From an uncultured bacterium (GTDB taxonomy: Bacteria > Chloroflexota > UBA5177 > JANWHV01), in NCBI GenBank assembly GCA_963827235.1, contig CAWHAE010000012.1:800001-864000 (forward strand): a stretch of 64,000 bases of DNA, read 5' to 3'. The translations under genes and the position numbers were made by a program. Positions 14,104-59,996 of the stretch are shown one piece after another (position 1 is the stretch's first letter; every line of letters begins with the position of its first letter). Below the pieces are notes generated by a model that was not told the origin of the DNA, did no database searches, and saw only the letters and a program-made list of their open reading frames with translations.

Positions 14104-14469
14104 CGGTAGTGCTCCCTCGATACTCACGGTCAACTAGTGCAAGAGACTGCGATCTCAGGCCTCGGTTGATCCTGATCGCCTCCACAAAGGATAACCCGGC
14201 TTGGCCGCCGGACGCCGGCGAAGGCGAGACTGCGGCCAAAACCATTCGCCACTTGCAGCGCGCCGTTCGGGTTTTCCGCTTACGGTATGCGCCGAGACAC
14301 TGTATCGTAGTCTTGTCGTCTGCAACCGGCACACGCGCACTGGCGTCCGCCGGCACCGGGAGGGTGGGTGCGCCTCCCCGAGCGCCGGGTCCGGTGCAGC
14401 GCCGGCCGGTTGGGAGATCAGGCGTTGCGCGGCACGCCGCGCCGAGAGACCACCGTGGAGGAGCTCCAG

Positions 14470-15276
14470 ATGCAGTTCGTACTGCGAGCGTATGACAGGA
14501 AGGCCGTGTTCAGGGCCGAGTCTCTGCCCGTGCAACAACTGTGGACGACATTGAGTGGCAGCGGGCTCTGGGACCGAACTAAAGTGCGCGTCGGACTGCG
14601 CGAACAGCCGGACGTGTATGCTCGGGAGACTGTCGTCGCCCGGCTCGAGTCCCTGGTGCAGGAGGGGCATGGCGACCAGAGTCTCCACTACCTTCGTGGG
14701 GCCGACCCGCCCACTCTTGCCAGCCTGCGTCGTGCCCACTGGCCGGTGATCGGCGAAGAAGAGGCCGTGCTGCTTCGTGAGGACATGGTACGCTACCTCA
14801 CCTATGGCTTGTGGCAAGCACCTGAGGACGTCCTTGGCCACGCCCTCGGCTTGCTCACCGGACGTGGGGACGCCTCCGTGATGGTGAGCAGCATCGGCAG
14901 TACGGGCGAGCTGCAGGAAATCCTCAGCGCAGTCGAAGATCGCGACGGATTCGCCGAAGCGTACGGCCCGACCATCCAGGAGGGTCTGCGGAGCGCGGGC
15001 CTGCCGGCCGACGACGCAACGCTGGCTCAGGAGCTTGGCCGTCTCGAAGAGATGCTCGCTCCCGTGCAGGGACTACTGCGCGGCGCGGCCAGCTCGGGAC
15101 TCGCTGTGATCGTCTACCGCGAGGAGCCCGGCGCCGGCGATGGGCTCTCGCGCCACATTGCCTCGGCCATGCGGGACGAAGAGGCCGGAGAGCCGGCCGA
15201 AAATGCGCCCACCTCGGATGCATACGACGATGTGGTATATAGTAACGGACGCGGCGAACCACCCGGCGAGCTCTGA
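14470..15276 (+). CDS. Hypothetical protein
   Basis: GGAGGAG RBS before ATG 14470, gene-like codon usage, acidic C-terminal tail; no family recognised. Confidence 0.7.
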   Translation: MQFVLRAYDRKAVFRAESLPVQQLWTTLSGSGLWDRTKVRVGLREQPDVYARETVVARLESLVQEGHGDQSLHYLRGADPPTLASLRRAHWPVIGEEEAVLLREDMVRYLTYGLWQAPEDVLGHALGLLTGRGDASVMVSSIGSTGELQEILSAVEDRDGFAEAYGPTIQEGLRSAGLPADDATLAQELGRLEEMLAPVQGLLRGAASSGLAVIVYREEPGAGDGLSRHIASAMRDEEAGEPAENAPTSDAYDDVVYSNGRGEPPGEL

Positions 15277-15393: not shown

Positions 15394-16131
15394 GTGCTAA
15401 AGCAGGTCACCGAGGAGACCCGAACGCAGCAGGGTACTCGCATTCTCATCATCGACGACGAGCCAAGCATCGTCCGTCTGCTGCAGGCGTACCTCGAGCG
15501 CGAGGGTTTCGAGGTTGCCACGGCGGCCGACGGTGCAAGCGCGCTGCAGCTGGCGCGAAGCTTCAAGCCGCAGCTCGTCCTGCTGGATCTCCTGTTGCCC
15601 GAGGTGGACGGCCTGGAGGTATGCCGCCAGCTTCGCCAGGAGTCCGACGTCTACATCATCATGCTCACGGCACGGTCGGAAGAAACCGATATCGTGATCG
15701 GCCTCACGCTCGGCGCGGACGACTACGTGACCAAGCCGTTCAGCCCGCGCGAGATCGTGGCGCGAGTGAAGGCCGTGCTGCGCCGCTCGCGGCGTCCGGT
15801 TTCCGTCCAGGAATCTGAGGTGATCAGTTTCCCGAACATCACTATCGATACCGGTCGCCACAAGGTCGTCGCCTATGGTGAATCGATCGAGCTCACCGCC
15901 CTTGACTTCGACATTCTGCGCGCCCTGGCCGCCCAACCGGGCATGGTCTTCACGCGGGCTCAGCTCCTCGAGCGCGTGTGGGGATACGACCACCTTGGAG
16001 ATGAGCGCGTCGTCGACGTCCACATCGGCCTGCTGCGAAAGAAGATCGAGCGCGATGCCCAGGAGCCGCACTTCGTGAAAACGGTGCGCGGAGTAGGCTA
16101 CAAGTTCGATGACGACGAGAACGAGCGGTGA
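15394..16131 (+). CDS. OmpR/PhoB-family response regulator
   Basis: ILIIDDE, LLDLLLP (phospho-Asp), GADDYVTKPFS, wHTH VVDVHIGLLRKKI...KTVRGVGY. Confidence 0.95.
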   Translation: MLKQVTEETRTQQGTRILIIDDEPSIVRLLQAYLEREGFEVATAADGASALQLARSFKPQLVLLDLLLPEVDGLEVCRQLRQESDVYIIMLTARSEETDIVIGLTLGADDYVTKPFSPREIVARVKAVLRRSRRPVSVQESEVISFPNITIDTGRHKVVAYGESIELTALDFDILRALAAQPGMVFTRAQLLERVWGYDHLGDERVVDVHIGLLRKKIERDAQEPHFVKTVRGVGYKFDDDENER

Positions 16132-17225
16132 ACCGCACGCGCCGCCTCTGGCACCGCTTGTGGCGGCAGATCACCTGGCGACTGTTCGTCTCCTACCTGG
16201 TCGTCGGCCTGGCCGCTATCGCTCTGCTCGGGCTGCTGATACTGATCCTGGCAGCGGACTACTCCCGCATGCACCCCGCGAGCGCGGGCTTCAGAGTGGA
16301 GGTGCTCCAGGGCGTCGCCTTCGCGGCTCTGGCAGCCGTTGTCGCTTCCGCAGGCGCCAGTCTCTTCGTCTCTCGCCGCATCGTGCGGCCACTCAGACAG
16401 ATGATGGATGCCAGCCAGCGCATTGCCGCGGGTCAATATCACGACAGGGTGCCCGTCGACGACGATTTCGAGATCACCATGCTGGCCGACAGCTTCAACC
16501 AGATGGCCGTTGCCCTCGAGCGAACCGACGAGCTGCGCCGGGCTTTGATCGCGGACGTGGCGCACGAGCTGCGGACTCCATTGACCAGCATCAAGGGGTA
16601 CATGGAGGCCTTGCTGGACGGCGTGATGCCAGCAAGCAACGAGACGTTCGGCCTCGTGTACGCCGAAGCTTCGAGACTGTACCACCTCGTCGAGGATCTG
16701 CAGGAGCTGTCCCGAATGGAATCCGGTCAGGTTCCCATGGAGCTGCACCCTATCGACCTGGATCCCCTCCTGCGCGGAATTGCCAACCGAGTGCGGCCTC
16801 AGTTCGAGGCCAAGGGTGTGCGGATCGCCGTCTCCTGGGCCCAGAAGGGCGACCACGTCTTGGGGGATGAAGACCGCCTCTGCCAGATCTTCCTGAACCT
16901 GCTCAGCAATGCCCTGCGCTACACGCCTGCCGGAGGCAGCGTCCAGCTTCGAGGATACTCGGACCGGGACGGCATCCATGTGGTCGTACAGGACACCGGC
17001 ATCGGTATAGCCCCGGAGCATCTCGACCATATCTTTGACCGCTTCTACCGCGTGGACAAATCGCGGTCCCGTTCACAGGGCGGCACCGGCATCGGCCTGA
17101 CAATCGCCAAGCACCTGGCCGAGCTGCACGGCGGCTGTATAACAGTGAGCAGTGTCGTCGGCTCCGGCAGCGCGTTCACGGTCAGTCTTCCCGTGGCGCC
17201 GACGCGGTCATGCGCCACGGCGTAG
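16128..17225 (+). CDS. HAMP-domain sensor histidine kinase (BaeS-like, very short external loop)
   Basis: Two TMs, HAMP, H-box AHELRTPL, N-box NLLSNALRYT, G1 DTGIGI, F-box IFDRFYR, G2 GTGIGL. Confidence 0.95.
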   Translation: MNRTRRLWHRLWRQITWRLFVSYLVVGLAAIALLGLLILILAADYSRMHPASAGFRVEVLQGVAFAALAAVVASAGASLFVSRRIVRPLRQMMDASQRIAAGQYHDRVPVDDDFEITMLADSFNQMAVALERTDELRRALIADVAHELRTPLTSIKGYMEALLDGVMPASNETFGLVYAEASRLYHLVEDLQELSRMESGQVPMELHPIDLDPLLRGIANRVRPQFEAKGVRIAVSWAQKGDHVLGDEDRLCQIFLNLLSNALRYTPAGGSVQLRGYSDRDGIHVVVQDTGIGIAPEHLDHIFDRFYRVDKSRSRSQGGTGIGLTIAKHLAELHGGCITVSSVVGSGSAFTVSLPVAPTRSCATA

Positions 17226-52701: not shown

Positions 52702-54618
52702 ATGCCAGACAGCATAGTGGGAATCGTGCCGCCCCAGCGCGCCAGGGTCGACTATGTGGACTACGCGGTGCTTGGCGTGGCGGCATGGTCCCGCACCCTG
52801 CGCCAGGCCGGATTCACGCCGAACGTGCTTCGTTTGCACGCTTCCGCCGACCTGCCGAGGCTTTGGGACTGCCGGGCAGTTTTCAGCCTGGGCGCCGGCA
52901 TCTACCCCGAGTTGTCCGGCGCGCTCGTCGCCACCGCGATAGCCCAGTGGGTACGCCAGGGCGGCATCTGGGTGGAGATTGCCGGCCATTTCTTTCTCTT
53001 CGGCTGCACGGGATCCCGGGTCACCGTGCCGGGCCAACTCGCGGCAGACATGTTCGACCTCGGCGTCGACATGGTGCTCGGCATGGCGTCGTTGCGGACT
53101 ACGCCGGCGGGCAGGGCGATCCTGGGGGCGCTGGATCCACCGGCGACAGTTCTGGCTGCCAATCCCACGAGCAACTTTCGGCTCATGGTGTTTCCAACCA
53201 TCGATCCATGGCTCAGCCTGGTGGAAACAGACCGCGGCGACAGTCTCCTGAGCGTCAATCAGTGCGGCAAAGGGTACATCGTCCGCTGGGGCTCCGCGGC
53301 GCATCGATGCACGCGTCGATTTCTCGCGGTGGCGCTCGTCCGGATAGTGCGCTACCTGCTCGATGGTCAGTTCTGTGCTTCCGTGCCGGGCACTTTGCAG
53401 CTGGTCATCGATCCTCTGCTCATCGCGCGAGAGCGGTGTGTGGCGCTGCAAACCGCCGTCGTGAACACCTCGTCCGCCCCATACCCGGATTCCTGTCTCG
53501 ACGTCGTGATGCATTCGTCGAGCGAGAGCGCGGTGGGACATGCCACTGTCGGCACAATCGCCGCCCGATCCGCCCATGTACAGGTGCTGACGCTCGACAT
53601 GTGCCCGCGGGAGCCGGTGGATGTCGGCGCAGTACTTGCCGGACCGCAGATCACGCGCGGGCAGGCAGTTGCCGAGCTGCCTCGACGCCCCGGTATCTGC
53701 AGCGAGCATATCCCTCCACCGCGACGGCCTGCCGACTTCGCGCAGTTCTGGCGTCGCGCGCGCACGGAACTTGGGGGCGTGAAGCGTGACGAGGAGTGGT
53801 GCTGGCTGCCGGAAGCCAGTACGGCGCAGGTCGTCACCAGGCGTGTTCGCTTTCGTAGTCTTGGTGGCATCCACATCGGAGGATTCTTCTCGTATCCTGC
53901 GCAAGCTGCTTCGCCTGTCCCGGGCGTGCTGATGCTTCCGGGGTACAACGGCATGGACCAATTCCCGTCATGTAGCGCCGCCAGCGGGTTCGCGGTGCTT
54001 GGCATCGACGTACGTGGTGTGGGCATCAGCGCGGAGGACTTTCCGTTCGAGGGTGACGGTCTGCTCACGCGTGGACTGTTATCGCCTGAGCATCATGCAT
54101 ACCGTGGAGCGTTCATGGACTGTCTGCGTGCGCTGGACGTGCTCGTAGCCCAGCCGATGGTCGATCCCAACCGCCTGAGCGTCCAGGGAATCAGCCAGGG
54201 CGGCGGATTGGCTCTGGCCGTTGCGGCGCTCAATCGGCGGGTGTCGACGGTGGTTGCGGAGGTACCGTTCCTCTGTGACATCACACGTTCGGCTTCGGTG
54301 GTCGACAGCGAGCCCCTGGCCGAGTTGAATCGATGGTTCAGCGTCCATCCCGAGGACGGCGAGGCTGCCATCTCCACTCTCGCCTACTTTGACGCGGCGA
54401 ATTTTGTCGTCGATCTTCGCGCGGCCACGCTGCTGGTGTATTCACCAGATGACCAAATCTGCCCAGAATCGAGTATCGAGACCACGCGCGCGCGCATGCA
54501 GTGCCCACTTACGGTATGGCGACGACGCGGCGGGCATAGCTATCCGTTCTTGACCCACCACAGGCGTAGCGTTACCAGGTGGCTGCTCAAGAGTATGACC
54601 GAACAGCAGCGAGTGTAG
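52702..54618 (+). CDS. CE7-like acetylxylan esterase with a ~330-aa N-terminal extension
   Basis: C-terminal P.DF..FW, PGY, DVRG, YRGA.MD..RA, GISQGG, VPFLCD, YFDA.NF, DQICP, GH catalytic set. Confidence 0.87.
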   Translation: MPDSIVGIVPPQRARVDYVDYAVLGVAAWSRTLRQAGFTPNVLRLHASADLPRLWDCRAVFSLGAGIYPELSGALVATAIAQWVRQGGIWVEIAGHFFLFGCTGSRVTVPGQLAADMFDLGVDMVLGMASLRTTPAGRAILGALDPPATVLAANPTSNFRLMVFPTIDPWLSLVETDRGDSLLSVNQCGKGYIVRWGSAAHRCTRRFLAVALVRIVRYLLDGQFCASVPGTLQLVIDPLLIARERCVALQTAVVNTSSAPYPDSCLDVVMHSSSESAVGHATVGTIAARSAHVQVLTLDMCPREPVDVGAVLAGPQITRGQAVAELPRRPGICSEHIPPPRRPADFAQFWRRARTELGGVKRDEEWCWLPEASTAQVVTRRVRFRSLGGIHIGGFFSYPAQAASPVPGVLMLPGYNGMDQFPSCSAASGFAVLGIDVRGVGISAEDFPFEGDGLLTRGLLSPEHHAYRGAFMDCLRALDVLVAQPMVDPNRLSVQGISQGGGLALAVAALNRRVSTVVAEVPFLCDITRSASVVDSEPLAELNRWFSVHPEDGEAAISTLAYFDAANFVVDLRAATLLVYSPDDQICPESSIETTRARMQCPLTVWRRRGGHSYPFLTHHRRSVTRWLLKSMTEQQRV

Positions 54619-54735
54619 CGGCTGGGCTCCGCGAGACAGCTCGGCACCAGTGCTAGGTCTCCCGGCTGAGTCGGCACAGCGCCGAGGTTTGCGTACGCAC
54701 ATCCCTCGCGGAAGGGGTCGAGTCTGGCATTCCGG

Positions 54736-54775
54736 CTTCACAGAATCTTTACGCAGCCTTCAATCTAGCTTCACA
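54736..54775 (+). promoter_or_regulatory. Four direct repeats at 11-bp period (OmpR/PhoB-type binding array)
   Basis: CTTCACA (54736), CTTTACG (54747), CTTCAAT (54758), CTTCACA (54769). Confidence 0.65.
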
Positions 54776-55001
54776 ATCCGTAGGCATATTCAAGCCAGAC
54801 ACAGGATCCGGCGGCGCTTGCGACCGCAAGGAGCTGTGGCGAGCCGGGAGGCTCAGCTCTGCAAGACAGGCTTCCTCCTTGCTACGGCGGTGTGCGACGG
54901 CTACACTTCACCCATCGTCTGCCCACGAATGGGGCTCGGGGGCAGGCGATCGAAAGCGTGGCTGCGCACACCGCCAACGATTTTCACCGGGAGAATAGCA
55001 C

Positions 55002-55490
55002 GTGCTTGAACGCGCGTTGGCACTCGGCCCCATCCGCAAGGCAGGCCTGCTGAGCTTCGCCGCGGCTTCCATCATGATCGGCCTGGCAGGATGCGGCGGC
55101 AGCTCGAGCACGGCCACGCAGGTCCAGGCAACGCCCACGGCGACTACCGGTGCCGTGGCCCTCGCGGCGTGCGCACCTGCATCGACGGACGGCCGCGGCG
55201 GACCATATCCTGCCGCCGAGTCGAGCGACTGCACCGGCCGGAAGACGGTCGAGATCGACGTCGTGGACGATCCGAAAACGGTCGGCGGCTTCGCGCCCAG
55301 CAACGTCACGATAACGAGAGGCACCGTGGTCGCCTTCGTCTGGAAGTCCTCGGGCCACAACCTCAGCCCGTTCCACACGGACATCGAGGACACGGGCTAC
55401 GTGTTTCGCAAGACCTTCGACCAGGCCGGTAGTTTCGACTTCAGCTGCCAGGTACATCCCGGCCAGAATGGTGTGATATTCGTCCGGTAG
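55002..55490 (+). CDS. Lipoprotein cupredoxin (amicyanin/plastocyanin-like blue copper protein, Gln axial ligand)
   Basis: Lipobox LAGC31, Ser/Thr linker, F.P..VTI..GT.V, GHN (His119), F...G.F.F.CQVHPGQ.G.I.V (Cys149, His152, Gln155). Confidence 0.88.
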   Translation: MLERALALGPIRKAGLLSFAAASIMIGLAGCGGSSSTATQVQATPTATTGAVALAACAPASTDGRGGPYPAAESSDCTGRKTVEIDVVDDPKTVGGFAPSNVTITRGTVVAFVWKSSGHNLSPFHTDIEDTGYVFRKTFDQAGSFDFSCQVHPGQNGVIFVR

Positions 55491-55682
55491 CGGCGAGTGG
55501 TGGAGTATTGTATGCTAACACCACAGAGAATGGTCTGCTGGCGCCCTGACTCGACGTGAGGCCCGTGTGCTATGCTCGCTCACGAATACGCTGCGAAGAG
55601 TGACGGTGTCCTTGGCATTGCCGGCATTGCAGGCGAATGAGTAGGTTAGCGTGCTCGGCGATGTAGGAGGTGATCCAGGATT

Positions 55683-57110
55683 ATGACTCAGACTTGCGCC
55701 CGCTGTGGCCTCTTCCATCCGCAGAATGTGCCCTGCGTCTCGCAGGCACTGGCACTCGTCGAACCGCAGGATGAGCTGGCCGTCGACTCATTCCTGGCCG
55801 GCCGCTATCGTATCCTGCGCACCTTGCATCACGGCGGAATGAGCGTCGTCTATCTGGCGGAAGATACCCTGCTCGGCAACCGCCACGTGGCGGTCAAGGA
55901 GCTGCGTGTACCTCCCTCGTCCGGCGCCGAGGAGCGGCAAGAGGCCGAGGCATGGTTTGCCCGTGAGGCGTACATCCTCAGCATCCTGAATCATCCTCTG
56001 GTGCCCGAGTTCTACAGCTCGTTCCCTGAAGGAGGCACCAGCTACATCGTTCAGGAGTACGCCGATGGCGATAACCTGAACGACGTCGTGCGGTCGCACG
56101 GGCCCTTCTCCGAAGACCTCGTTCTCGACTGGGCCATCTCGCTCTGCGGTCTGTTGAGTCATCTGCACGGCCTCGACGATCCCGTGCTGTTCCGCGATCT
56201 GAAGCCGGCGAACATCGTGCTGCGCAATGCAACGTCGACCAATCCTGATCGCATGTGCCCGCTCAAAGTGGTGGATTTCGGCATCGCCCGGCATTACCAG
56301 CCGAAGACCGTGGGAACGGTGATCGGTACACCCGGCTATGCGCCGCCGGAACAGTATCAGGGCCTGGCGACACCTCAAAGCGACATCTACGCGCTCGGTG
56401 CGACGCTGCATAGGCTGCTCACCGGCTACGATCCCGAGCACGGCACCCCGTTCTGCTATCCCGCTATCCGCGCGCTCAACCCCCTGGTCACCAGCGAGCT
56501 CGCCGCGATCGTCGAGAAAGCGATTCGACTGGATCCGGCGCAGCGCTATGCCACGGCCGACGAGCTCGCCGACGCTCTGCTCGACCTCGCCTGGGAGCGC
56601 GGACAGTCGGGCATGACGGGCGTGGGCGCCCAAAGCGGTCACTGGTATCACGGCCCGTCGACACGATCGCAGCAGGCCTTCCGCTGGACCGCCCTCGTCG
56701 TCTGCCTGATGATGGTAGCGCCGGGGGTATTCTCGGTGCTGGCCGGCATGAGCGTAAGCTCGTCGAGCACGGTGCCGAGCTTTACTGACTATGCCTGCCC
56801 GCCTGCCTCGTCGGATGGCGCCGGTGGCCCATATCCCGCGCAATATCCGTCCCTATGCCTCGAGCAGTCGCAGGTCGTGATCCAGGTCGTGCAGGACGCC
56901 ACGCAGGTAGTGGGCTTTGCGCCGAGCAATGTGACCGTAAGCCGGGGCACCAGAGTGATGGTGGATCCCAACGACCTTGGCTGTACCGTGCGCTGGCTGC
57001 AGACAATGGGTGCCCAGGCGGCGGTATCTGGGCGGCTCACGCAGACGGGAGACTACCGATTTGCCTGCCAGCAGTTCCCGAACGTCATCGGGGTGGTGCA
57101 CGTCGAGTAG
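55683..57110 (+). CDS. Membrane Ser/Thr (Hanks) protein kinase with C-terminal extracellular cupredoxin-like domain
   Basis: GGMSVVY, VAVKE, FRDLKPAN, DFG, GTPGYAPPE, SDIYALG; one TM (WTALVVCLMMVAPGVFSVLAGM); C-terminal domain aligns with the upstream cupredoxin; AGGAGG RBS. Confidence 0.93.
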   Translation: MTQTCARCGLFHPQNVPCVSQALALVEPQDELAVDSFLAGRYRILRTLHHGGMSVVYLAEDTLLGNRHVAVKELRVPPSSGAEERQEAEAWFAREAYILSILNHPLVPEFYSSFPEGGTSYIVQEYADGDNLNDVVRSHGPFSEDLVLDWAISLCGLLSHLHGLDDPVLFRDLKPANIVLRNATSTNPDRMCPLKVVDFGIARHYQPKTVGTVIGTPGYAPPEQYQGLATPQSDIYALGATLHRLLTGYDPEHGTPFCYPAIRALNPLVTSELAAIVEKAIRLDPAQRYATADELADALLDLAWERGQSGMTGVGAQSGHWYHGPSTRSQQAFRWTALVVCLMMVAPGVFSVLAGMSVSSSSTVPSFTDYACPPASSDGAGGPYPAQYPSLCLEQSQVVIQVVQDATQVVGFAPSNVTVSRGTRVMVDPNDLGCTVRWLQTMGAQAAVSGRLTQTGDYRFACQQFPNVIGVVHVE

Positions 57111-57170
57111 GAGCCGGCATGGCAGATCAGCTTGCAGGGCATCAGGCTGCCCTGGAATGATGGCGGTCGC

Positions 57171-58445
57171 GTGACCGAGGCGAAACGAGACGGCGTTGCC
57201 TCGCCACAGGCACCGCCGGTTGATGCTCTGCTTTCCAAGAGCGCCATCGTCGTCCCTACGTACTGGGGTCGTTCCCACGGCTTCCGGCGGCCCGGAGACA
57301 GCACCGAAGACCACCCCACGCCGGCCAACGAGCAGGGCACGATGGCCAGGCTGCTGGCCAGCCTGCAGCGGCTCGCCGAGAAGCCGAGTGTAGTGCTTGT
57401 CCTGATCTCCAGCTCGGCGCCGGACGTGGCTACCAGCGCCGCGTGGCGTGTCGACACCGTTCGCGACATGTATCCCGATCTGCCCATCGCCCTCTGGCTG
57501 CCTACGCACGTGCAGATTCTGCACGGACGGCTTCGCTCGCTGGGACACGACGATTGGACACTGTGGTTCGATTCCCGCGGCTATCCGCTGATCAGGAACA
57601 TGCAGCTCCTGGTGCCCTACGTGCTCGGCATGGAGCTGGTAGTGGCACTCGACGACGACGAGACCGTCGAAGAGCCCCATTTCATGCGACGCGCCGCCGA
57701 GGCGATCGTGCGCGGCGACGCGGCCGGTAACCGCGTGTTCGGTGCAGGCGGCCACTACCTCGACGAGGAAGGCCGGCGCACGCACGAAGTCGCGGAGAGC
57801 GAGAAGCGCCAATCGAACCCCTTCGAGAAGAAGACCTACCTCATGAACGGCATCCTGGAGCGCATTGACTCCATGCCCGGCGAGGTCGTGCCCAGCGCCT
57901 TCGCTCTCGGCGGCAACATGAGCTTCAGCCGCGAGCTGATGGCGAGGGTCGGCTTCGATCCCGCCATCGCTCGAGGCGAGGATATCGACTATGTGCTGAA
58001 CGCGGCGCTCGCCGGCATCCCGTATCATTTCGACAAGGAGCGCCCTATCCGCCACCTGCCTCCGGAAGGGCGCTCGTATAGGGACTTCGACTACGTGAAG
58101 CTGCAGCAGGACGTGCGCCGCTTCATCTACGAGCGCGAGAAGCTCCGAGCCGCCGGCAACATGGGTAACCCGGCCCTCGTTCGCCCCGAGGATCTCGACC
58201 CGTATCCGGGTGCGTTCCTGCGCGACGATCTGGAGGCCCAAGCAGTTGAGTCCCTTACCTTGCACCGGCCGAAGGTCTACGACACGAGCATTCCGGAGGC
58301 CGGCGTGTTCGTGCACAACGCGCTGCAGTTCGCGCGGACTGCCGCCGCGAGCTACCTCGGCTTCGCGCGCGACTGGCCCCAGGCGATGGCTCAGATGGCG
58401 GACGACCGCGTTTTGAGGCACATCATGCGCGGCATCCTTCCGTGA
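57171..58445 (+). CDS. GT-A fold (GT2-like) putative glycosyltransferase
   Basis: IVVPTY, RN..LL, ALDDDE (DxD), GGNM.F, GFDP...RGEDIDY; start uncertain. Confidence 0.7.
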   Translation: MTEAKRDGVASPQAPPVDALLSKSAIVVPTYWGRSHGFRRPGDSTEDHPTPANEQGTMARLLASLQRLAEKPSVVLVLISSSAPDVATSAAWRVDTVRDMYPDLPIALWLPTHVQILHGRLRSLGHDDWTLWFDSRGYPLIRNMQLLVPYVLGMELVVALDDDETVEEPHFMRRAAEAIVRGDAAGNRVFGAGGHYLDEEGRRTHEVAESEKRQSNPFEKKTYLMNGILERIDSMPGEVVPSAFALGGNMSFSRELMARVGFDPAIARGEDIDYVLNAALAGIPYHFDKERPIRHLPPEGRSYRDFDYVKLQQDVRRFIYEREKLRAAGNMGNPALVRPEDLDPYPGAFLRDDLEAQAVESLTLHRPKVYDTSIPEAGVFVHNALQFARTAAASYLGFARDWPQAMAQMADDRVLRHIMRGILP

Positions 58446-59996
58446 TCATGGCAGCGGCCGCTTCCACCTGAGGTTCGGCCGGCGCGCCGCCAGCGCTTCG
58501 TCGATGCGCGTCACCGGCGTGAAGTGCGGCGCGCTGAGAATCTCCTCGCCGCCTTCCTCGACCTCCCGGGCCACGGCCAGCAGCGCCTCGGCAAAGCCGT
58601 CGAGCGTTGCCCGATCTTCCGTTTCGGTGGGCTCGATCATCAGGCACTCGTCGACGATGTGCGGGAAATAGACGGTCGGCGGATGATAACCGTAGTCGAG
58701 CAGACGCTTGGCTATGTCGACCGTCTTCACGCCGTGCCTTTTCTGGCGCTTCCCCGATAGCACGAACTCGTGCATGCAGTGCGCCGGGAACGGCACGTCG
58801 AAGGCGTCGCTCAGCAGCCCGCGCAGGTAGTTGGCGTTCAGCACGGCGTCCCGGCTCGCCTGCGCCAGTCCGTCCGGGCCCATCGAGCGGATATACACGT
58901 AGGCGCGGATCAGCAGGCCCACATTGCCAAAGAAGCTCCGCACGCGGCCGATGCTGAGCGGCCTGTCGTCCACGAGGCGGTAGTGGTCAGTGCCGTCGGC
59001 GCCGGTGAATCGCTCGATCTGCGGCACGGGCAGGAATGGGGCAAGGGCGGCCGTCACGCCGACCGGTCCCGTGCCAGGGCCGCCGCCGCCGTGCGGCGTG
59101 GTCATGGTCTTGTGCAGGTTGAAGTGCACGACGTCGAAGCCCATGTCTCCGGGTCGCGTGGTGCCGAGGATAGCATTCAGATTGGCGCCATCGTAGTATA
59201 GCCGGCCTCCCGCGGCATGCACGATGCCGGCAATCTCCACGATGTCCTTCTCGAACAGGCCGCACGTGTTGGGGTTGGTGAGCATCAGGGCGGCGGTGCG
59301 CGGGCCAACCAATCGACGAAGGTCGTCGACGTCGACAGTGCCCTGCTCGTTCGATTTCACCTGCACGACGCTGTAGCCCGCCGCGGCCGCGCTGGCCGGA
59401 TTGGTGCCATGGGCTGTGTCGGGTACCAGCACCTCGGTGCGGTGGTCGCCTCGGCTCTCGTGGTAGGCGCGGATCATCATCAAGCCCGTGAGCTCCCCGT
59501 GTGCCCCGGCCGCGGGCTGCAAGCTGAAGGCATCCATACCGCCCACCGCGCAGAGATAGGTCTGCAGGCTGTAGAGCAGCGAGAGCACCCCCTGCACGCT
59601 GTCGTCCGGCTGGTGGGGATGGAGAGACGACCAGCGCGGATCCGAGACGACGCTCTCGTGCAGCTTGGGATTGTACTTCATCGTGCACGAGCCCAGGGGA
59701 TAGAACCCTCCGTCAATGCTGTAGTTGAGCTGCGACAGCCGGGTGAAGTGGCGAACGACCTGCAGCTCGCTCATCTCGGGCAACTCGGCACTTTCGGCTC
59801 GCTGCAGATGCGGAGGCAGCAGCGCCGACAGCGGCTGTTCCGGCACATCGCACGCCGGCAGTGAGAAGGCGGACCGGCCCGGCGACGAGAGCTCAAACAC
59901 CGTGGGCTCGACTACTTTCCGCTGGGCCGTCGTCACGGCAGCGCGCGATCGCGCCGCTATTTCCTCGTGTATCGTGGCAAGCTTGTCGCTGATCAT
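58446..59996 (-). CDS. gcvPB: Glycine dehydrogenase subunit 2
   Basis: [54 protein letters not shown]. Confidence 0.96.

Follow-up and report, generated by a model that had tools for sequence, protein, structure and literature searches.

What could a bacterial Ser/Thr kinase sense with an extracytoplasmic domain that resembles a copper protein stripped of most of its copper ligands? The question is raised by a locus in a 64,000-nucleotide stretch of DNA from an uncultured Chloroflexota bacterium (assembly GCA_963827235.1, contig CAWHAE010000012.1, positions 800,001 to 864,000; hereafter the window), in which the gene of a cupredoxin lipoprotein is followed by the gene of a Hanks-type kinase. 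A sequence-only reading of this DNA had proposed that the C-terminal sensor domain of the kinase is a paralogue of the lipoprotein with a remodelled copper site. We found that the kinase tail has lost three of the four type-1 copper ligands and that it carries a cysteine at the first His position beside the retained ligand cysteine, both being invariant. The genes concerned are:

55002-55490, plus strand: type-1 (blue copper) cupredoxin lipoprotein, 162 residues, assigned by PF00127, by AlphaFold2 and Foldseek, and by its ligand residues
55683-57110, plus strand: single-pass Hanks-type Ser/Thr kinase, 475 residues, assigned by its Pkinase match, catalytic residues and hydropathy
56775-57107, plus strand: ectodomain of this kinase, a copper-site-remodelled cupredoxin with C372-x19-C392, C434 (codon 56982-56984) and C462 (codon 57066-57068)
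57132-58445, plus strand: family 2 glycosyltransferase-like (GT2-like) protein, 437 residues, starting 21 nucleotides past the kinase stop codon

The lipoprotein and kinase reading frames lie on the same strand at the coordinates given by the earlier reading. Together with the third gene they form a three-gene operon encoding a blue-copper lipoprotein, a receptor Ser/Thr kinase and a GT2-like transferase. A consensus scan for promoters and terminators found nothing at the locus, including no terminator-like site between the lipoprotein and kinase genes in the window's genome. The GT2-like protein had no Pfam match, and its nearest ESM Atlas clusters were Glyco_tranf_2_3 (0.99). Comparison within the genus covered five genomes, one per species: G000, the window's own 8-Mb assembly, and G001 to G004.

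The kinase ectodomain and its lipoprotein paralogue

The lipoprotein gene has a GTG start with GGGAG 8 nucleotides before it. The encoded N-terminus is a hydrophobic signal followed by the lipobox LAGC31, as in bacterial lipoproteins, and the orthologues carry LAGC or LTGC. The PF00127 (Copper-bind) model matched the protein with 24.1 bits against a gathering cutoff of 21.2, and the Cupredoxin_1 and halocyanin models matched below cutoff. The AlphaFold2 model had a predicted local distance difference test score (pLDDT) of 93.7, and Foldseek aligned it with 102 chains of the PDB at an expectation value E<=0.001, among them plastocyanin, amicyanin and pseudoazurin; for plastocyanin 1bxu the template modelling score TMt was 0.78 and the root-mean-square deviation 2.2. 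The ligand set is H119, C149, H152 and Q155, in columns that line up with the ligands of relatives, where P0074 and the outgroups have Met at the Q155 column. Thus, by model match, predicted fold and ligand set, the lipoprotein is a type-1 cupredoxin.

It shares with amicyanin, pseudoazurin and plastocyanin (all PF00127) the fold and the upstream His, and its ligand loop C149-x2-H152-x2-Q155 has the amicyanin length (C-x2-H-x2-X). Unlike those proteins, it has a lipid anchor, an axial Gln and an N-terminal extension of disulfide type, in which Cys57-x19-Cys77 accompanies a GGPYP motif. The axial Gln has a comparator in the amicyanin variant M98Q (2idt), and stellacyanin is a type-1 cupredoxin with the same axial residue.

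Two further cupredoxins were seen in these genomes. On the minus strand of G002:C242 (L026), a secreted GGPYP cupredoxin paralogue with the full ligand set lies directly downstream of the gene of a 622-residue flavoprotein oxidoreductase with a twin-arginine-like signal, which hints that the ordinary job of the GGPYP family is electron transfer for extracytoplasmic dehydrogenases. In the window's own genome (G000:C9, L054), an ordinary plastocyanin-like protein with the loop C-S-I-H-P-F-M, unrelated to the GGPYP family, adjoins a Rieske-domain protein and a metallophosphoesterase with a Tat signal.

The product of 55683-57110 is by sequence a Hanks-type Ser/Thr kinase, with a Pfam Pkinase match at 6e-34 and the catalytic residues K72, D172, N177 and D198 (of DFG) in place. 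Its layout comprises a kinase domain at about residues 36-305, a transmembrane helix at 338-356 (the hydropathy peak) and a cupredoxin ectodomain at 365-475. Because the single hydrophobic helix is preceded by Arg residues, the last 111 residues are predicted to face outward. Ahead of the kinase domain, residues 5-18 (55695-55739) form a C-x2-C-G-x2-H-x5-C knuckle (C5, C8, H12, C18), which looks like a small zinc or rubredoxin-like module; it is common to three kinase clades, A, X and B (described below), in all five genomes.

A single BLASTP comparison aligned lipoprotein residues 56-162 with kinase residues 371-475 at 46 of 107 identities, with 2 gap positions and E 1e-16. The earlier count of 33 identities over an ungapped segment of 55 residues was reproduced exactly; so were both Cys-x19-Cys spacings and every residue that had been named, C31, C57, C77, H119, C149, H152 and Q155 in the lipoprotein and C372, C392, C434, C462, F465 and V468 in the kinase. 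The claim that the two domains align without gaps stands for the N-terminal half only, and the whole domain needs one gap of two residues. The two halves also differ in how much they share: the N-terminal scaffold half, with the GGPYP loop and the segment GFAPSNVT, is 43-55% identical between tail and lipoprotein, against only 21-32% for the half that holds the copper site. At E<=0.01 these two domains were the only copies in the 8-Mb assembly. Gene conversion was considered as a cause of the similarity and rejected, because tail and lipoprotein showed no consistent excess of identity within a genome.

The tail has a predicted cupredoxin fold, as had been supposed. An AlphaFold2 model built on a 26-row alignment had a pLDDT of 86.3, a predicted template modelling score of 0.81 and eight strands, and it matched 25 PDB chains at E<=0.001 in Foldseek, led by pseudoazurins, plastocyanins and amicyanin variants and including the CupA structures 4f2e (rank 11) and 4f2f; in addition, the tails group inside the GGPYP cupredoxins in the tree described below. 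No cupredoxin Pfam family matched the kinase at E<=1, and all ESM Atlas scores for the tail were below 0.9.

A profile of eight tails matched pseudoazurin 2ux6 at E 2e-5 and placed C434 on His40, C462 on Cys78, F465 on His81 and V468 on Met84. Since this alignment puts the four residues on the 2ux6 ligands, the mapping of ligand positions in the sequence-only reading was correct. The type-1 set is thus incomplete in the tail: of the ligands only the Cys is kept, and the first His has become Cys. Across the eight tails the second-His position reads F, M, Q, Y, Y, I, N and L, and the axial position is Val or Ile. From the geometry of type-1 sites, which we take as a guide, the His-to-Cys change at C434 would set the two sulfurs at an estimated distance of about 4-5 Å, close to a linear S-Cu-S arrangement.

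Conservation, origin and distribution of the fusion

The earlier reading assumed that the Cys434/Cys462 pair is conserved, that the tail is not decaying neutrally and that the pairing of the two genes is not a one-off. All three assumptions hold. C434 and C462 are invariant in eight of eight kinase tails, at identities down to 33%, and three of the 14 invariant columns are cysteines (C372, C434 and C462); C392 is missing in the fragment P0005. The Nei-Gojobori proportions of nonsynonymous (pN) and synonymous (pS) differences for the tail were 0.26 and 0.74 between G000 and G001, and 0.41 and 0.69 between G000 and G002, the ratios being rough since synonymous sites are saturated. pN lies far below pS, the mark of purifying selection on the tail. 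The kinase domain evolves more slowly by a factor of 2-4 (pN 0.06 vs 0.26 for the tail in G001, 0.16 vs 0.41 in G002), and the kinase orthologues are 81% (G001) and 61% (G002) identical to the kinase of the window.

Lipoprotein and kinase genes are adjacent on the same strand in G000, G001 and G002, so that the pair recurs in three genomes. The order in G001 is that of the window: lipoprotein, kinase, GT2-like gene and convergent glycine-cleavage genes. The entire locus occurs again on a second G001 contig (G001:C6, L022), where the kinase, GT2-like and gcvPB genes are frameshifted; this copy looks like a low-quality duplicate assembly, not a paralogous locus. The G002 contig carries an aminotransferase gene on the opposite strand, X302 (a gene described below), a response regulator, a histidine kinase, the lipoprotein and the kinase, where the contig ends. 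The kinase gene is absent between the lipoprotein and GT2-like genes of two species. In G004 the order is response regulator, histidine kinase, lipoprotein and GT2-like gene, with 27 nucleotides between the last two, and in G003 the GT2-like gene follows the lipoprotein gene directly.

In a tree of kinase domains, the cupredoxin-tailed kinases formed clade A (99/99), the nearest kinases of G003 and G004 formed clade X, and a paralogue found in all five species formed clade B. Clades A, X and B are joined in a polytomy, which gives no support to clade X as the orthologue of clade A. The clade X kinases of G003 and G004 were also searched for traces of a degraded cupredoxin, with a negative result; the best tblastn values (E 0.012-0.04) were no better than those at unrelated positions.

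A maximum-likelihood tree of the cupredoxin domains placed all tails in one clade (71/93, or 91/89 without the long-branch row P0031), which sits inside the clade of GGPYP cupredoxins (100/99). On the evidence of this tree, the fusion of kinase and cupredoxin has a single origin. A profile of three tails, run with HMMER against 1.84 billion representatives, returned 170 proteins at E<=0.001, 22 at <=1e-10 and 2 at <=1e-30. Among the 152 proteins examined, only P0002, P0003, P0004 and P0031 have a kinase domain; P0005 and P0006 start within the transmembrane segment of the kinase, and P0072 is a P0031-like fragment. All are singleton clusters, named 'plastocyanin' where they have a name.

Across a sample of 401 Chloroflexota genomes from 217 genera (21 genomes at the class level), GGPYP cupredoxins at E<=1e-12 occurred only in the window's genus, in five of five genomes. 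The kinase tail was present in three of those five, and the fusion was not found in the other 396 genomes sampled. The unpublished genome G018 is part of these counts, and none of the positive statements depends on it.

Upstream DNA and the two-component pair

Upstream of the lipoprotein gene, and elsewhere in the window, lie elements that may control the operon:

54736-54773, plus strand: four direct repeats CTTYA at 11-bp spacing, a candidate operator for an OmpR-family regulator
54785-54790, plus strand: -10-like hexamer CATATT, 12 nucleotides after the last repeat, a putative promoter element read from the sequence
54886-54978, plus strand: predicted structured 5' leader RNA of 93 nucleotides, a long outer stem around a hairpin with the conserved loop CGAAYGRGKCTYRR
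14368-15276, plus strand: X302, a protein of no known family, whose true start is probably internal (about 268 residues), just upstream of the two-component pair
15394-16131, plus strand: OmpR/PhoB-family response regulator (Response_reg 3e-33, Trans_reg_C 4e-27)
16128-17225, plus strand: histidine kinase with two transmembrane segments and a very short outer loop (HAMP from residue 80, HisKA and HATPase_c by Pfam)

The sequence-only reading contained no upstream regulatory parts, though the region it delimited starts at 54736, the first CTTYA repeat. The array gives two triple matches that overlap, where 100 shuffles predict 0.00, and even the pattern of two repeats occurs at one site only in the window. 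The three-repeat pattern is unique in the whole genomes G000, G002 and G004, each time upstream of the lipoprotein gene, and a reversed control pattern gave no matches. The array is absent from G001 and from G003, where the contig ends inside the lipoprotein gene. At the same aligned offset as the hexamer, G002 has CATAGT and G004 has CATGCT, a CATNNT pattern; because the consensus promoter scan found nothing there, we only infer a promoter at this place.

Promoters activated by PhoB/OmpR regulators typically have, where the -35 box would be, direct repeats in tandem 10-11 bp apart. The layout of the locus, with tandem repeats at helical-turn spacing upstream of a -10-like box, is what such a promoter would be predicted to show. 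The likeness extends to the 11-bp repeats, the 12 nucleotides before the hexamer and an OmpR-family gene adjacent in two species; binding of the regulator is predicted.

Between the repeat array and the ribosome-binding site of the lipoprotein gene lies the leader RNA, which has homologues at L021:2907-2998, L070:7051-7142 and L024:2797-2887. RNAalifold folded the four sequences into 26 pairs, 11 of them with compensatory changes, and 95.7% of cells were paired. Both partners differ in nine pairs, a number that none of 500 shuffles reached (3.3+-1.4) and that compares with 1-4 in slid controls. A covariance model of the leader matched four of 41 genomes, solely upstream of the lipoprotein gene. 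The leader has no match to an Rfam family, and an Rfam search over 54000-58600 returned nothing but one sub-threshold snoRNA-like match.

A candidate for the regulator is the response regulator of the list; in G002 and G004 only the histidine kinase gene stands between its orthologue and the lipoprotein gene downstream. The histidine kinase orthologues are 61-72% identical to the G004 copy; in G004 and G002 the histidine kinase gene stops 250-430 nucleotides short of the lipoprotein gene. In the window, about 37-38 kb (17382-54618) separate the two-component pair from the lipoprotein gene, and in G001 about 25 kb on the same contig; the stretch in the window includes genes of a WD40 protein, a sugar ABC transporter, an RpiR regulator and an AXE1 (acetyl-xylan) esterase. 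The separation arose in the lineage of G000 and G001, by insertion or by rearrangement.

X302 lies upstream of the response regulator and histidine kinase genes in G001 and G002 too. It had no Pfam or NCBIfam match, and its homologues form 20 clusters, none with a Pfam family. One metagenome protein, P0154 (383 residues), joins an X302-homologous domain in frame to a transmembrane segment and a full type-1 GGPYP cupredoxin. P0154 may be a real fusion, or it may be a read-through gene call because shorter calls of the same cluster exist.

Proposed mechanism, alternatives and significance

The nearest precedent for the remodelled site is pneumococcal CupA. In CupA (PMC7558416, PMC5646241), which has a cupredoxin fold, Cu(I) is bound with high affinity by the two thiolates of C74 and C111, and the partner protein CopA has a cupredoxin domain. 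CupA resembles the kinase tail in having the fold without a blue-copper site, and CupA with CopA resembles the present pair in combining a free, membrane-anchored cupredoxin protein with a cupredoxin domain on a membrane effector. The C74/C111 site may be likened to C434/C462, where the equivalence to type-1 ligand positions is our inference by analogy. The systems also differ: CupA works on the cytoplasmic face and feeds a P1B ATPase, whereas here both domains are predicted to face outward, the effector is a Hanks kinase and no ATPase was among the scanned neighbours. In addition, the type-1 site is complete in the free partner of the present pair, unlike in CupA, and the tail lacks the C-x-M-x-M second (S2) site of CupA.

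We propose, tentatively and with a confidence that falls somewhat short of even, that the kinase acquired its sensor when a cupredoxin of the GGPYP type, such as the neighbouring lipoprotein, was duplicated, that the Cys pair of this sensor is a Cu(I)/redox sensing centre, and that the operon is regulated by an OmpR-type protein. C434 and C462 would either hold Cu(I) between their two thiolates, in two-fold coordination as at site S1 of CupA, or act as a thiol/disulfide switch. Copper or oxidant status outside the cell would change the ectodomain and, via the single transmembrane helix, the activity of the kinase. The lipobox of the lipoprotein and the Arg residues before the helix of the kinase place both domains outside the membrane, and the co-expressed lipoprotein on the outer membrane face would be the most obvious donor of copper or oxidising equivalents. 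An OmpR-type regulator probably switches the operon on through the four 11-bp-spaced repeats, and the structured leader RNA would tune it further.

Several observations weigh against this proposal. An invariant pair of extracytoplasmic cysteines is equally expected of a static structural disulfide. Apart from the two cysteines no soft ligand is conserved in the tail, whose third ligand position is variable; the loop reads C-Q-Q-F-P-N-V, with Met in only one of eight tails and no C-x-M-x-M. Neither copA, copZ, a multicopper oxidase nor a respiratory gene was found in the scanned neighbourhood, where the flanks encode the esterase, the RpiR regulator, the sugar ABC transporter and glycine cleavage proteins. 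Two of the five species (G003 and G004) keep the lipoprotein without the kinase between it and the GT2-like gene, and because of this the lipoprotein does not depend on the kinase. The nearest kinases of these two species, 53-54% identical and aligned through the transmembrane helix, lie elsewhere and end in short low-complexity tails. G001 lacks the CTTYA array. No NCBIfam equivalog reached its cutoff for the response regulator, and neither this protein nor the histidine kinase matched a copper-specific NCBIfam model above cutoff. Finally, the distribution of the fusion is very narrow, comprising one genus and a few metagenome singletons.

The alternative that survives best, and one we regard as a real possibility, is that the tail is a structural pseudo-cupredoxin. 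A permanent disulfide would have replaced the metal as stabiliser of the fold, the ectodomain would bind an unrelated ligand or mediate kinase dimerisation, and the adjacency of the two genes would be a leftover of tandem duplication. A static disulfide explains the conservation of the cysteines almost as well as a sensing centre does. The extracytoplasmic domain has an even number of cysteines, four (C372/C392 and C434/C462), the three other ligand positions are lost, and the copper-site half has diverged well beyond the scaffold half; the absence of copper genes nearby and the persistence of the lipoprotein without the kinase in G003 and G004 also agree with it. However, the domain evolves fast, and a Cys pair that is never replaced, even among tails as little as 33% identical, is at least as readily explained by a functional centre. 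The estimated sulfur distance of about 4-5 Å would suit a bridging Cu(I) better than a 2-Å disulfide unless the backbone moved, and CupA shows by example that such a site binds Cu(I).

In the model of the sequence-only reading, the kinase reads the redox or copper state of its partner, perhaps as a paralogous heterodimer of tail and lipoprotein; the route would be transfer of electrons or copper between the type-1 site and the Cys pair. Both genes belong to one operon, their products are on the same membrane face, and in the three loci with assembled flanks the kinase always has the lipoprotein upstream; CupA and the metal-binding domain of CopA are a precedent for pairs of cupredoxins. We nevertheless consider this model unlikely. 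Contact between the paralogues is a hypothesis of the model, and a predicted complex of the lipoprotein domain and the kinase tail (score 0.00, mark 0.32) is evidence neither way. The missing within-genome excess of similarity gives no hint of co-evolution or gene conversion, a complete His/Cys/His/Gln type-1 site is in general a buried electron-transfer centre and not a copper donor, and in two of five species the lipoprotein is retained but the kinase is not.

It is also conceivable, though rather improbable in our view, that the lipoprotein serves the two-component system in the first place, as its accessory sensor or its output, and that the Hanks kinase is a later add-on, which in some species competes for or copies the interaction. 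The response regulator, histidine kinase and lipoprotein genes are contiguous in G002 and G004, the outer loop of the histidine kinase must be tiny because its HAMP domain begins at residue 80, the four-repeat candidate operator is found in G000, G002 and G004, and P0154 links an X302 domain to a transmembrane segment and a cupredoxin. On the other side, the pair is 38 kb away in G000 and 25 kb away in G001, and P0154 may be a gene-calling read-through. That the tail is the neutrally decaying remnant of a chance fusion is very hard to believe: its faster change than the kinase domain and the lack of a recognisable cupredoxin in the clade X kinases of G003 and G004 would agree, but an open frame in every complete copy, the low pN, the 14 invariant columns with three cysteines in eight tails and the confidently predicted fold already contradict it.

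Our proposal of a Cys-pair sensing centre could be extended to a complete extracytoplasmic copper/redox relay, in which the Cys pair on the kinase receives Cu(I) or oxidising equivalents from the paralogous lipoprotein, Ser/Thr phosphorylation in the cytoplasm thereby records the state of an outer electron carrier, and the module is under the control of its own OmpR-type operator and of a structured leader RNA not seen before. As a whole, this extension is doubtful.

PknB and PrkC (with PASTA domains) and PknD (with a propeller) share with the present kinase an N-terminal kinase domain, one transmembrane helix and a C-terminal extracytoplasmic sensor. Unlike in those kinases, the sensor here is a cupredoxin paralogous to the product of the neighbouring gene. 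Redox-type domains are known from other Hanks kinases, as in PknE (DsbG-like) and PknG (rubredoxin). A full-text literature search brought up no publication in which a cupredoxin is combined with the sensor of a Hanks or Ser/Thr kinase, and the domain combination appears to be undescribed. The protein is a receptor Hanks kinase with a new sensor domain, and its partner logic echoes that of CupA and CopA.

The system is confined to one uncultured genus and is known from sequence and models. The sensed signals of bacterial Hanks kinases are known for only a few ectodomains, and this tail is a chemically legible sensor: a well-understood metal site has been rebuilt into a Cys pair, and an unaltered protein of the parent type is encoded next to it as a comparison. 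Should the Cys pair prove to bind Cu(I) or to be switched by oxidation, the kinase would be a first link from cupredoxin chemistry to Ser/Thr signalling and a clear case of a sensor domain recruited from a neighbouring gene.

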